From a virus, in UHGV virus genome UHGV-0171044: a stretch of DNA of 36,457 nt; one strand, 5' to 3'. The notes under the pieces were generated by a model. The model searched no databases. It was not told where the DNA came from and was given only the letters and a program-made list of their open reading frames with translations. Below, in pieces: positions 6,088-34,180 of the stretch. The stretch's first letter is position 1; each line of letters starts with the position of its first letter. The translations under genes and the position numbers were made by a program.

Positions 6088-6420
6088 TCAATCGTAATAA
6101 GCTGGAATTGATTTTCCGCGTTGCTTCTGGCGGCCTGAGCAAGTCACACCCATTTCACTGCGTGGCTTGCTGTACCATGTGCGCTGATTCTTGCGCTCAA
6201 TACGTTGCAGGTTGCTTTCAATCTGTTCGTGGTATTCAGCCAGCACCGTAAGGTCTATCGGATTCAGTGCGCTTTCTACTCGTGATTTCGGTTTGCGATT
6301 CAGTGAGAGAATAGGGCGGTTAACTGGTTTAGCGCTTACCCCAACCAACAGGGGATTTGCTGCTTTCCATTGAGCCTGTTTCTCTGCGCGACGTTCGCGG
6401 CGGCGTGTTTGTGCATCCAT
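6088..6420 (-). CDS. N: antitermination protein N (lambda type)
   Basis: MDAQTRRRERRAEKQAQWKAANPLLVGVSAKPVNRPILSLNRKPKSRVESALNPIDLTVLAEY matches lambda N including the arginine-rich boxB-binding motif; real start is the internal ATG at 6420. Confidence 0.9.
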   Translation of the reverse strand: MDAQTRRRERRAEKQAQWKAANPLLVGVSAKPVNRPILSLNRKPKSRVESALNPIDLTVLAEYHEQIESNLQRIERKNQRTWYSKPRSEMGVTCSGRQKQRGKSIPAYYD

Positions 6421-6578
6421 CTGGATTCTCCTGTCAGTTAGCTTTGGTGGTGTGTGGGAGTCGTAGTCCTGAACGAAAACACCCCGCGATTGGCGCATTG
6501 GCAGCTAATCCGGATTCGCACTTCCGGCCAATGCTTCGTTTCGTATCACACACCCCAAAGCCTTCTGCTTTGAATGCT

Positions 6579-14844: not shown

Positions 14845-15029
14845 ACGCCACAATTCAAACGATACCAGAGCTTCTTATCCAGACACGAGGCAATCAGACC
14901 GAAGTGGCAAGGATGCTTTCCTGCGCAAGAGGAACAGTGCTCAAGTACAACCGAGACAGCAAAGGCGAGCGTCACGTAATAGTTAACGGCGTCCTGATGG
15001 TCAAACAGGGCAAGAGGGGAAGACGATGA
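14841..15029 (+). CDS. ninH: NinH
   Basis: YGNQTEVARMLSCARGTVLKY ... IVNGVLMV resembles lambda NinH. Confidence 0.75.
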   Translation: MNATIQTIPELLIQTRGNQTEVARMLSCARGTVLKYNRDSKGERHVIVNGVLMVKQGKRGRR

Positions 15030-15544
15030 GCATAAGAGAACTAAACCTCACCAAAGAACAGCACGATTGGCTGAATGGCTGGCTTGAACTGTGGGGCGCA
15101 TGGGTTTATTCAGGCCGCCTGGAAAAGCGCATGAGCAGCGTAATAGCGAAGTTCATGGAGAGCGTAGAGCCGGGAAGAGTTATGACAAGGCCAATGTGTA
15201 ATGATGATGATGGAATGTTGATTTCTCAGGTCGTCGATTCCGTCATGTACATTGACAAGAAAGCCTTTGGCATCCTCCTCAGCTACTACGCTCATGGTTC
15301 ATCTAAGCGAGCAATTGCATCCTACTATCACGCGACTGCAAAGCCACGCAAGATGTGTGGGCGTGGTGGCGAGGGATGGAGAAAACCTTCACTGGCAACC
15401 TGTAGAAACGAAATTGACGATATCCTGAAAGCGTCATTATTTGTTTTGTACCAACCAATGCAAAATGCTTTCAAAATGCGTAAACGTGTTGAGAAAGTTA
15501 AGCATGTTGCTGTTAAAAGTCTTGACATGCAATTATCCATTTAG
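15026..15544 (+). CDS. Q: late antiterminator Q (phage 21/82, QuuD-like type)
   Basis: LELWGAWVYSG ... RPMCNDDDGMLISQVVDSV resembles the QuuD-type Q family; immediately upstream of pR'/tR'. Confidence 0.8.
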   Translation: MSIRELNLTKEQHDWLNGWLELWGAWVYSGRLEKRMSSVIAKFMESVEPGRVMTRPMCNDDDGMLISQVVDSVMYIDKKAFGILLSYYAHGSSKRAIASYYHATAKPRKMCGRGGEGWRKPSLATCRNEIDDILKASLFVLYQPMQNAFKMRKRVEKVKHVAVKSLDMQLSI

Positions 15545-15551
15545 CCATAAT
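15522..15551 (+). promoter_or_regulatory. late promoter pR'
   Basis: TTGACA, 18-bp spacer, CATAAT at the 3' end of Q. Confidence 0.6.
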
Positions 15552-15560
15552 TAGAAGGTA

Positions 15561-15607
15561 AGCTGCCGTTAGTGACTCTTAAGTTGCAACGGTGGCTTTT
15601 TTTATTT
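15561..15607 (+). terminator. tR' terminator
   Basis: stem AGCUGCCGUU / AACGGUGGCU followed by TTTTTTTATTT. Confidence 0.6.
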
Positions 15608-15682
15608 GGGTCAGTCGTATAAAGGTCATTACGGAAGGCTGTTAACCTTCTTATCGTGGTTCGAGCCCACGCTGTCCCGCCA
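15608..15682 (+). tRNA. tRNA-Asn (anticodon GTT), folded by hand
   Basis: acceptor GGGTCAG/CTGTCCC (one T-T mismatch), anticodon stem GAAGG/CCTTC with loop CTGTTAA, T-arm CGTGG-TTCGAGC-CCACG, genomic CCA. Confidence 0.55.
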
Positions 15683-15687
15683 AACAT

Positions 15688-15763
15688 GCTGGTTTAGCTC
15701 CAATGGTAGAGCAGTCGCCTTGTAAGCGAATGGGTAGCGGTTCAAGTCCGTTAACCAGCACCA
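15688..15763 (+). tRNA. tRNA-Thr (anticodon TGT), folded by hand
   Basis: acceptor GCTGGTT/AACCAGC, D-arm GCTC-CAATGGTA-GAGC, anticodon loop CTTGTAA, T-arm AGCGG-TTCAAGT-CCGTT, genomic CCA. Confidence 0.7.
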
Positions 15764-15880
15764 TAACTGAGCCGTAGCCACTGGCTATCCTGAATTCATC
15801 AGTGATAGTTATGCTGCGGCCTTCTTTTTCCCCTTCCCAATATAAGAACTACGCAATCCGTTACTGGCGGAGGCGTTGCT

Positions 15881-16096
15881 ATGAAATCAATGGACAAAAT
15901 CTCAACTGGCATTGCCTACGGAACATCTGCTGGTAGTGCGGGATACTGGTTTTTGCAGTGGTTGGATCAGGTCAGTCCGTCACAGTGGGCTGCGATTGGA
16001 GTGCTTGGAAGCCTTGTGTTGGGTTTTCTCACTTATCTGACAAATCTGTATTTCAAAATCAGAGAAGACAGACGAAAGGCTGCGAGAGGTGAATAA
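15881..16096 (+). CDS. S: class II holin / pinholin (S21-like) with dual-start motif
   Basis: matches phage 21 S ([49 protein letters not shown]); Met1 and Met4 dual start. Confidence 0.9.
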
Positions 16097-16593
16097 TGCC
16101 TCCATCATTACGAAAAGCCGTTGCTGCTGCTATTGGTGGCGGGGCTATTGCCATAGCATCTGTGTTAATCACTGGCCCAAGTGGTAACGATGGTCTGGAA
16201 GGTGTTAGCTACATACCATACAAAGATATTGTTGGTGTATGGACTGTATGTCACGGACACACCGGAAAAGACATCATGCTCGGTAAAACGTATACCGAAG
16301 CAGAATGCAAAGCCCTCCTGAATAAAGACCTTGCCACGGTCGCCAGACAAATTAACCCGTACATCAAAGTCGATATACCGGAAACAACGCGCGGCGCTCT
16401 TTATTCGTTCGTCTATAACGTGGGCGCAGGCAATTTCAGAACATCGACGCTTCTTCGCAAAATCAACCAGGGCGATATCAAGGGCGCATGTGACCAGCTA
16501 CGTCGCTGGACATACGCTGGCGGTAAGCAATGGAAAGGGCTGATGACTCGCCGTGAGATTGAGCGTGAAGTCTGTTTGTGGGGGCAGCAATGA
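16096..16593 (+). CDS. R: SAR endolysin (lysozyme with N-terminal signal-anchor-release domain)
   Basis: Gly/Ala-rich N-terminal SAR helix ([20 protein letters not shown]) plus lysozyme domain; start overlaps the holin stop. Confidence 0.9.
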
Positions 16594-17027
16594 GCAGAGT
16601 AACCGCGATTATCTCCGCTCTGGTTATCTGCATCATCGTCTGCCTGTCATGGGCTGTTAATCATTACCGTGATAACGCCATCGCCTACAAAGAGCAGCGC
16701 GATAAGGCCGCATCCATCATTGCTGACATGCAGAAGCGTCAACGTGATGTAGCAGAACTCGACGCCAGATATACAAAGGAACTTGCTGATGCTAACGCGA
16801 CTATCGAAAGTCTCCGTGCTGATGTTTCTGCTGGTCGTAAGCGCCTGCAAGTCGCCGCCACCTGTGCAAAGTCAACGACCGGAGCCAGCAGCATGGGCGA
16901 TGGAGAAAGCCCAAGACTTACAGCAGATGCTGAACTCAATTATTACCGTCTCCGAAGTGGAATCGACAGGATAACCGCGCAGGTTAACTACTTGCAGGAG
17001 TACATCAGGACGCAATGCCTTCGATGA
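16590..17027 (+). CDS. Rz: Rz i-spanin
   Basis: N-terminal transmembrane helix then coiled coil; ATGA overlap with the endolysin stop. Confidence 0.85.
16789..16974 (+). CDS. Rz1: Rz1 o-spanin lipoprotein, embedded in Rz in the +1 frame
   Basis: lipobox LLVVSAC followed by a Pro-rich segment; nested entirely inside Rz. Confidence 0.7.
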
Positions 17028-33239: not shown

Positions 33240-33307
33240 AGTTGAAGCCCCAACTGCGGGAACAGTCAGGGCTTCGGTATCAACAAATCGGATTAGGAAA
33301 TATTGAC

Positions 33308-34180
33308 ATGAAAAGTATAGCAAAGGCACAAAACGATTTCACCATCTTCAAATTCGGCGACAGTGAAATCCGCGTCATCAACAAATGCGGTGAGCCGTGG
33401 TTTGTAGCAAAAGATGTTTGTGATGCTTTAACCCTGACTAACTCACGCAAGGCGCTTACTGCACTTGATGACGATGAAAAGGGAGTAACTTTAAGTTACA
33501 CCCTTGGTGGTGAGCAGAATCTAAGCATTGTTAGCGAATCAGGTATGTATACATTGGTTCTGCGCTGCCGCGATGCTGTCAATAAAGGTTCGGTCCCGCA
33601 CAAATTCCGCAAGTGGGTAACAGCAGAAGTTCTACCTTCAATTCGCAAACATGGCGAGTATGTGAAAGGCAAGAAAACCACTGTTGAGGAAAGAACGCCG
33701 CTACGCGATGCAGTAAACATGCTGGTAGGAAAGAAAGGACTTCGCTATGACGATGCATACAATATGGTTCATCAGCGTTTTGGTATTGACAGCATTGATG
33801 AACTTTCAATTGAACAAATCCCGCTGGCCGTAGAGTACATCCACAGGGTAGTGCTTGAAGGCGAGTTCATCGGCAAACAAGAGAAGAACGAGCTTTCTGC
33901 AAAAGAAGCAAACAGCCTTGTATGGTTATGGGATTATGCCAACCGCTCACAGGCATTATTCCGCGAACTGTATCCGGCGCTAAAACAAATTCAATCGAAC
34001 TATTCCGGCAGATGCTACGACTACGGTCATGAATTCTCGTATGTTATCGGAATGGCGAGAGACGTTTTAATCAATCACACACGAGATGTTGATATCAATG
34101 AGCCAGACGGACCAACGAATCTTTCCGCATGGATGAGACTTAAGAATAAAGAATTACCTCCTTCAGTACATAACTACTGA
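33308..34180 (+). CDS. ant: antirepressor Ant
   Basis: follows arc in immI; AGGAAA RBS before the ATG at 33308 (the track start at 33242 is GTG and would run into arc). Confidence 0.8.

Follow-up and report, generated by a model that had tools for sequence, protein, structure and literature searches.

The tRNA-Asn and tRNA-Thr pair of lambdoid late leaders

The closest described counterparts of the locus considered here are the late control regions of Sf6 and phage 21, which share the order Q, late promoter pR', qut site or Q-binding element (QBE, putative in the present locus), terminator tR', tRNA-Asn, a 5-nt spacer, tRNA-Thr and lysis genes. The Sf6 record (AF547987) lists the late promoter, the qut site, tR', tRNA-Asn and tRNA-Thr in the order and spacing found here, each as "similar to phage 21", and the phage 21 record (OL657228) lists pR', Q-binding elements, start site, pause element, terminator, tRNA-Asn, tRNA-Thr and the S21 holin. 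The same late-leader tRNA pair is also present in BTP1, SPN9CC, vB_SosS_Oslo, HK446 and mEp506. The paper on phage L describes Asn and Thr tRNAs at the same location in Sf6 and tRNA genes at this place in some P22-like phages, and since related phages such as P22 are without the module (PMC8022706), it must be dispensable; a Salmonella prophage is shown with this pair as well in the paper on epsilon34 (PMC2629481). Larger versions exist as expanded arrays, represented by Klebsiella phage Mulock and several IMG/VR contigs, in which homologous Asn (89%) and Thr (92%) genes stand at the same place before the holin and are accompanied by tRNA-Phe(GAA), tRNA-Arg(TCT) and sometimes tRNA-Gly(TCC).

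The DNA analysed here (UHGV virus genome UHGV-0171044), referred to as the window, is a stretch of 36,457 nt that belongs to a mosaic P22-like phage most closely related to Sf6 (61% coverage, 97.6% identity). The window carries a P22-type immI region marked by a match to the sar RNA. Over the 156 nt of the two tRNA genes and their spacer, it departs from Sf6 and phage 21 at a single base: tRNA-Asn has C in place of U at position 60 of the T-loop, whereas tRNA-Thr is the same in all three, as is tR'. In the three-way alignment the pause element, the terminator, tRNA-Thr and the following 60 nt are identical or nearly so. The window differs from Sf6 and phage 21 in the junction at ~15826, where an Sf6-type Q and putative QBE are joined to a phage-21-type lysis cassette. 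A megablast search with 15400-15900 returned 100 phage records, and BTP1 is 97.9% identical to the window in the module region.

The tRNA pair at this site is ordinary and already known, its annotation going back to the Sf6 and phage 21 genomes. Of 5426 complete E. coli genomes, 369 carry the module, and in these the NCBI pipeline labels tRNA-Asn and tRNA-Thr; with the pair so routinely labelled in hundreds of E. coli prophages, its presence here carries little weight as a discovery. The analysis is of use in showing that an odd-looking Asn gene is under selection rather than decaying, in providing a quantitative codon argument for the recurrence in coliphages of these tRNAs and of the Arg, Gly, Ser and Pro tRNAs of relatives, and in drawing attention to the route of expression and to the role of a hairpin that follows tRNA-Thr. 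The locus probably represents two functional tRNA genes that a mosaic temperate phage of the Sf6/HK620-like (P22-like) kind carries in its late-operon 5' leader; they would be expressed under the control of Q and top up the decoding of certain codons.

Structure and conservation of the two tRNAs

Over the whole 36.5-kb window, ARAGORN calls exactly two tRNA genes, both on the + strand: tRNA-Asn with anticodon GTT at 15608-15682 and tRNA-Thr with anticodon TGT at 15688-15763. Between them lies the 5-nt spacer AACAT (15683-15687, + strand), read directly from the sequence. The Rfam model RF00005 finds both at the same places and over their full length (model positions 1-71 of 71), with 53.0 bits for tRNA-Asn (E-value 8e-9) and 61.5 bits for tRNA-Thr (E-value 4e-11), the E-values being those for the whole window and the gathering score of the family being 29 bits. 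The first-pass annotation had arrived at two tRNA genes 5 nt apart with these anticodons by hand folding and had named ARAGORN as a suitable check; both programs make the same calls, and its placement of the pair directly after tR' and ahead of the lysis genes agrees with the curated annotation of Sf6 and phage 21.

Both genes encode the 3' CCA, which follows the discriminator base G73 in tRNA-Asn (the G at 15679) and A73 in tRNA-Thr. The positions required of a tRNA core (U8, A14, G18-G19, U33, a purine at 37, the T-loop UUCRA, G53-C61 and CCA) are well established, and the sequences contain all of them, with A at position 37. In E. coli, the identity set of AsnRS consists of the anticodon G34-U35-U36 and G73, and that of ThrRS of G1-C72, C2-G71 and G35-U36; G34, U35, U36 and G73 are present in tRNA-Asn, and G1-C72, C2-G71, G35 and U36 are present in tRNA-Thr, in addition to its A73. 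The anticodon loops are the same as those of the host genes asnT (CUGUUAA) and thrU (CUUGUAA).

The irregularities pointed out earlier in tRNA-Asn, a T-T mismatch in the acceptor stem and a weak D-stem, are real. The former is U4·U69, scored as non-canonical by Infernal, and the D-stem has three pairs (G10-C25, U11-A24 and A12-U23) followed by U13·U22, again non-canonical according to Infernal; the variable loop has 4 nt. There is one mismatch in tRNA-Thr too, G27·A43. The minimum-energy fold of tRNA-Thr is the cloverleaf, and tRNA-Asn folded alone is no more stable than shuffled sequence (z -1.1). Taken together, the two U·U mismatches of tRNA-Asn, its low stability and the G27·A43 mismatch of tRNA-Thr could describe decaying passengers, that is, relics of past recombination that no longer give a useful tRNA product. 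The second gene of ST64T and phage L, too diverged for an ARAGORN call, and the absence of the module from relatives such as P22 (PMC8022706) point in the same direction, and the first-pass annotation had also allowed that the Asn gene might be degenerate.

Comparison within the family speaks against decay. When IMG/VR was searched with a 15-mer of the tRNA-Asn D-arm, 95 members were gathered, 75 of which have the same layout of Asn, 5 nt and Thr; the remainder are expanded arrays that include tRNA-Phe(GAA), tRNA-Arg(TCT) or tRNA-Gly(TCC). The C60 form of tRNA-Asn is in the minority: 6 of these 95 members and a single E. coli prophage share it. Covariation was evaluated on the 17 distinct Asn and the 18 distinct Thr sequences. 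Compensatory changes are found at three pairs of tRNA-Asn, namely 6-67 (A-U/G-C), 7-66 (G-C/A-U) and 28-42 (A-U/C-G), and at three pairs of tRNA-Thr, namely 3-70, 5-68 (with four pair types) and 6-67, which makes six in total. The mismatches themselves do not accumulate but are fixed across the family: U4·U69 is unpaired in 16 of the 17 distinct Asn sequences and stays so while neighbouring pairs covary, U13·U22 is unpaired in 17 of 17, and G27·A43 is invariant among the 18 distinct Thr sequences, in which C2-G71 is kept in 18 and G1-C72 in 17. Within a class I cloverleaf of 7/4/5/5 bp, 89.9% of the cells are paired for Asn and 94.4% for Thr; in a control in which the 3' partners were slid by 1-3 columns, pairing fell to 22-53% and covariation was absent or far lower.

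Because pairs covary, the mismatches are fixed in the family and slid registers lose the pairing, the mismatches of tRNA-Asn are conserved family traits of a selected structure and not signs of decay. The suspicion of a degenerate Asn gene thus finds no support, as the mismatches are family-wide, 6-67, 7-66 and 28-42 covary, and the positions for tertiary contacts and AsnRS identity are intact. With every tertiary and identity position preserved, scores well over the Rfam threshold (53.0 and 61.5 against 29 bits) and a module that is nearly invariant among phages of Escherichia, Shigella, Salmonella and Klebsiella, we regard decay of the pair as very improbable.

Late control region and expression of the pair

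Upstream of the pair, a gene for a Q-type late antiterminator (Q21 type) of 172 aa occupies 15026-15544 on the + strand (Pfam PF06530 Phage_antitermQ, E-value 1.3e-25); its product is 98% identical to Sf6 gp59 and 85% identical to the Q protein of phage 21. The late promoter pR' was located by a promoter scan at 15522-15551 on the + strand, with a -35 hexamer TTGACA (15522-15527), an 18-nt spacer and a -10 hexamer CATAAT (15546-15551). It matches 11 of the 12 consensus positions and lines up with the pR' annotated in Sf6 and in phage 21; position 15522, given as the start of the feature in the first-pass annotation, is the first base of its -35 hexamer. The spacer of pR' contains, at ~15531-15547, a direct repeat resembling a QBE, AATTATCC/ATTTAGCC, at the place where the phage 21 QBE reads ATTGAGCA/AATGAGCA; the repeat sequences differ, and this putative QBE is assigned by its position in the alignment to that of phage 21. 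Likewise transferred from the phage 21 annotation are the likely transcription start at ~15558 and the sigma-dependent pause element TAAGCTG at 15559-15565 (+ strand), the latter being identical to that of phage 21 in the alignment.

The intrinsic terminator tR', recognised by folding at 15560-15607 on the + strand, consists of a hairpin (15560-15598) and a U-run (U7 A U3) that extends to 15607. The hairpin has a dG of -20.2 kcal/mol (z -5.4), and 0 of 200 shuffles are as stable. A terminator scan reported neither tR' nor the hairpin downstream of tRNA-Thr, since both have bulges or loops that fall outside its rules, and folding was therefore used for both. The tR' stretch is identical to the annotated terminator feature of phage 21, for which the record cites PMID 1704887, and from this identity termination at tR' and its override by Q are predicted here as well. 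In most of the 95 IMG/VR relatives tR' is kept.

The U-tract of tR' abuts tRNA-Asn, 15607 being the base before 15608, with zero bases between them. On the + strand between 14500 and 16500, no separate promoter for the tRNAs was found besides pR' and a weak site inside Q that matches 9 of 12 positions. Given this abutment and the lack of another convincing promoter nearby, the tRNA precursor must start at pR' or further upstream, and since there is no room for a promoter of their own, read-through dependent on Q would be the most economical route to these tRNAs.

A related arrangement exists in Shiga-toxin phages, where tRNA genes likewise occupy the interval between tR' of a lambdoid phage and its first late genes, ahead of stx2. 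These are different tRNAs (ileZ-argN-argO in 933W/Sakai-type phages), and the codons they read are rare ones in E. coli. In the Stx2a phage, their transcription appears to come from a promoter of their own, located between tR' and stx2AB (PMC7547250). There the tRNA genes follow tR' after a long gap, whereas in the window tRNA-Asn abuts the U-tract and leaves no room for a promoter.

Under the preferred reading, of expression through Q, pR' would fire at ~15558 and, as long as Q is missing, most transcripts would end at tR', at about 15600-15607, one base short of tRNA-Asn. Once Q is loaded at pR', the polymerase would pass tR' as well as the hairpin after tRNA-Thr, producing one long transcript that carries both tRNAs together with the lysis and virion genes. 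The tRNAs would then be cut at their 5' ends by host RNase P, and 3' trimming would free tRNAs ending in CCA, which host AsnRS and ThrRS would be expected to charge. The result would be extra decoding of Asn codons and ACA during the mass synthesis of capsid and tailspike proteins. According to the phage L paper, it is not known how these tRNAs come to be expressed (PMC8022706).

Beyond tRNA-Thr, folding reveals a 50-nt hairpin at 15771-15820, followed by CUUCUUUUU at 15821-15829, an unannotated element that spans 15771-15829 on the + strand. It is very stable (dG -27.7 kcal/mol, z -5.5), and its sequence is conserved in 74 relatives. The U-tract after it occurs only together with phage-21-type lysis cassettes, CUUCUUUUU being present in the window and in phage 21, and is lost where an Sf6-type lysis cassette joins, at ~15826. 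Among 24 distinct sequences of the hairpin, pairing reaches 98%, with ten one-sided changes of the wobble type and zero compensatory pairs, no better than in shuffles; at a permissive threshold, a search of 15500-15900 for an Rfam family of the hairpin gave chance-level matches only. The hairpin may serve as a second terminator or terminator-like element, as a processing site, or as a stabiliser of the 5' end of the late mRNA after excision of the tRNAs.

The lysis region that follows (15881-17027) is collinear with that of phage 21, and P22-type virion genes lie further downstream. It comprises, all on the + strand, an S21-type pinholin (15881-16096, Pfam PF04971), a lysozyme-type endolysin (16096-16593, PF00959) and an Rz spanin (16578-17027, PF03245), with a candidate Rz1-like ORF embedded in Rz (16783-16974), proposed from the ORF list and from its position by analogy to phage 21.

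The hairpin also bears on whether Q is required at all. The tRNAs might instead be made in the prophage or early in infection, either by leakage through tR' from a constitutive pR' or from N-modified pR transcripts that continue across Q and tR'; transcription would then be stopped ahead of the lysis genes by the hairpin and its U-tract, and the tRNAs would have an early function or one in lysogenic conversion. Such a gate would suit the great stability of the hairpin and the CUUCUUUUU that follows it. PMC7547250 describes the pR' of lambdoid prophages as constitutively active, with termination just downstream. The RNA-seq paper on BTP1 lysogens treats the two homologous tRNA genes apart from the genes that it lists as exceeding 100 TPM, wording which implies that they are well represented in lysogen RNA, and has the late operon start directly after them (PMC7067206); this is indirect evidence of expression under the preferred reading too. 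The window also codes for an N-like antiterminator (6088-6498, - strand), and a polymerase modified by it could also pass tR'; the enrichment of ACA in early as much as in late genes, described below, is a further point in favour.

The BTP1 prophage, however, is spontaneously induced in a small fraction of cells (PMC7067206), so the bulk RNA-seq signal may come from these. The hairpin of tR' is strong and is followed by seven consecutive U. In Sf6-type relatives the downstream hairpin is conserved but its U-tract is missing, so termination cannot be its general role, and it lacks compensatory changes. Production of the tRNAs independently of Q is therefore unlikely as their main route, while N-modified early transcripts and leakage through tR' are possible as other sources of precursor.

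A further and rather doubtful possibility takes as the conserved unit the whole cassette of ~270 bp (15560-15829), made up of terminator, tRNA-Asn, tRNA-Thr and 50-nt hairpin. In excising the tRNAs, RNase P and RNase E would re-cut the late transcript, and the mRNA for the lysis and virion genes would then begin with the hairpin as a protective 5' end. The U-tract, where present, would act as a second gate, so that a leaky pR' could supply the lysogen with tRNAs but not with the lysis genes. U4·U69 would then be no defect but functional, in processing or in escape from tRNases that attack the acceptor stem.

Codon usage, lineages and roles of the tRNAs

Codon counts show what the two tRNAs could contribute under Q-dependent expression. 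The G+C content is 46.5% for the window and 50.7% for a 50-kb sample of K-12. ACA makes up 31.8% of the Thr codons in late and 32.9% in early phage genes, compared with 16.3% in ordinary K-12 genes and 5.5% in K-12 genes for ribosomal proteins and elongation factors. The enrichment in late genes over ordinary K-12 genes is about 2-fold (Fisher p 6e-7), and the difference between late and early phage genes is not significant. Asn codons per 1000 amount to 54.7 in late and 43.8 in early phage genes, 41.7 in ordinary K-12 genes and 33.6 in the ribosomal and elongation factor set (late versus early p 0.02; late versus ordinary K-12 p 4e-4, 1.3-fold), with 96 per 1000 in the tailspike gene and 66 in the coat protein gene. 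The codon counts show no bias between AAC and AAT. A late-gene comparison for AAC/AAU and ACA, as proposed in the first-pass annotation, finds ACA enriched and Asn codons modestly so in late genes, the former not being specific to late genes and the latter carrying no AAC/AAT preference.

In a ranking of the 61 codons by their late-gene enrichment, ACA (2.0-fold) comes 5th, after AGA (3.8), AGG (3.1), GGA (2.5) and TCA (2.1) and before ATA (1.9), GCT (1.9) and CCA (1.8). AGA, GGA, TCA, ACA and CCA are read by Arg-TCT, Gly-TCC, Ser-TGA, Thr-TGT and Pro-TGG, respectively, and these same tRNAs recur in the expanded arrays, N4 and Cyrano. Since early and late genes are equally enriched, the excess of ACA reflects the lower G+C of the phage and not an adaptation of late genes, and the codon pattern as a whole fits compensation for the compositional difference between phage and host. 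Late-specific codon adaptation was considered and set aside, only Asn showing a modest late excess. E. coli already has four tRNA-Asn genes, which leaves the benefit of an extra tRNA-Asn unclear. On a separate point, a tRNA made only late could not serve the early genes, though ACA is equally enriched there.

As to origin, tRNA-Asn is 60% identical to asnT of K-12 and tRNA-Thr 70-71% identical to thrU and thrT, values (60% for asnT, 70% for thrU) that rule out a recent capture from the host. The Thr gene belongs to a phage-borne lineage, the copies of the lambdoid module, P1, N4 and Cyrano being 79-96% identical among one another and that of the window being 87% identical to N4, 81% to P1 and 81% to Cyrano.

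Divergence from the host invites a role in counter-defence, in which the tRNAs would be spares for host tRNA-Asn and tRNA-Thr cleaved or depleted by tRNases of the host or of competitors, and their divergent stems, including U4·U69, would make them poor substrates. Colicin E5 targets tRNA-Asn, and no tRNase is known to act on tRNA-Thr(UGU) in these hosts. Consistent with such a role are the low identities to host genes, the phage-borne lineages, the retention of U4·U69 in 16 of 17 sequences next to covarying pairs and the recurrence of the tandem of Asn and then Thr(UGU) in the unrelated coliphages P1, N4 and Cyrano; the general hypothesis has also been published, with colicin E5 named among the E. 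coli tRNases (PMC10264068). The anticodon loops are, however, identical to those of the host, so that evasion of tRNases through the anticodon loop is rejected and the published signature of evasion, mutations in that loop, is absent; moreover, codon enrichment already explains which tRNAs appear. Counter-defence is for these reasons quite unlikely, and codon decoding is the preferred role.

P1 (trnA-trnT), N4 and Cyrano carry the same two anticodons in the same order as the window, Asn and then Thr(UGU). Their Asn genes form another lineage, 88-97% identical among themselves and 56-62% identical to that of the window, and their tandems have other spacing and neighbours and do not stand behind a terminator controlled by Q.

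Mosaic borders and the conserved hairpin

From the perspective of its surroundings, the tRNA cassette is bordered on both sides by mosaic joints, at 15522-15558 and at approximately 15826. Upstream, both the Q gene and the Q-binding repeat are of the Sf6 type, the Q of the window being 98% identical to that of Sf6 and 85% to that of phage 21, and the pinholin and lysozyme cassette found downstream is of the phage-21 type. Across IMG/VR relatives, the terminator, the tRNAs and the hairpin are constant, but the promoter and lysis modules are exchanged.

This conserved hairpin of 50 nt lies immediately 3' of tRNA-Thr, and folding shows it to be very stable (dG -27.7 kcal/mol, z -5.5); together with the trailing CUUCUUUUU it occupies 15771-15829 of the (+) strand. 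The same CUUCUUUUU comes after the hairpin in phage 21, and the U-tract behind the hairpin is missing where relatives carry lysis genes of the Sf6 type. The Sf6 and phage 21 records contain no annotation for this element, a search of 15500-15900 returned no Rfam family match for it, and a covariation check of 24 distinct sequences found no compensatory changes.

The Asn-Thr order in relatives and in unrelated coliphages

The second tRNA gene has diverged in some relatives. In ST64T (L003, 776-860), the gene 3' of tRNA-Asn is too diverged to be called by ARAGORN; its equivalent in phage L, described as 99.9% identical to ST64T, has been read as having the anticodon UAA (PMC8022706). In E. coli 2012C-4227 (L008, 1581-1734), the Thr gene is chimeric, with a phage-type 5' third and a remainder similar to host thrU, and is followed by an additional tRNA-Gly(TCC).

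The order tRNA-Asn(GUU) then tRNA-Thr(UGU) recurs in unrelated coliphages, namely P1 (L132, 525-678), N4 (L131, 437-686) and Cyrano (L005, 673-825). Their Thr genes are homologous to that of the window (81-87%), whereas their Asn genes, at 56-62%, belong to a different lineage. When the late genes of the window (15881-36407) are compared with E. coli K-12, the most enriched codons are AGA, AGG, GGA, TCA, ACA, ATA, GCT and CCA. This set includes codons decoded by Arg-TCT, Gly-TCC, Ser-TGA, Thr-TGT and Pro-TGG, tRNAs that are present in the expanded arrays of some relatives and in N4 and Cyrano.

Immunity and early antitermination

A full-length match to sar RNA (Rfam RF00262, 71.6 bits) at 33240-33306 on the (-) strand is antisense to the 5' start of the Ant anti-repressor ORF (33242-34180, phrog_245), which indicates that the window phage has a P22-type immI region. 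An N-like antitermination protein is encoded at 6088-6498 on the (-) strand (phrog_271, E 6e-27). In principle, early transcripts that start at pR and have been modified by N could be a further source of read-through past tR' into the tRNAs.
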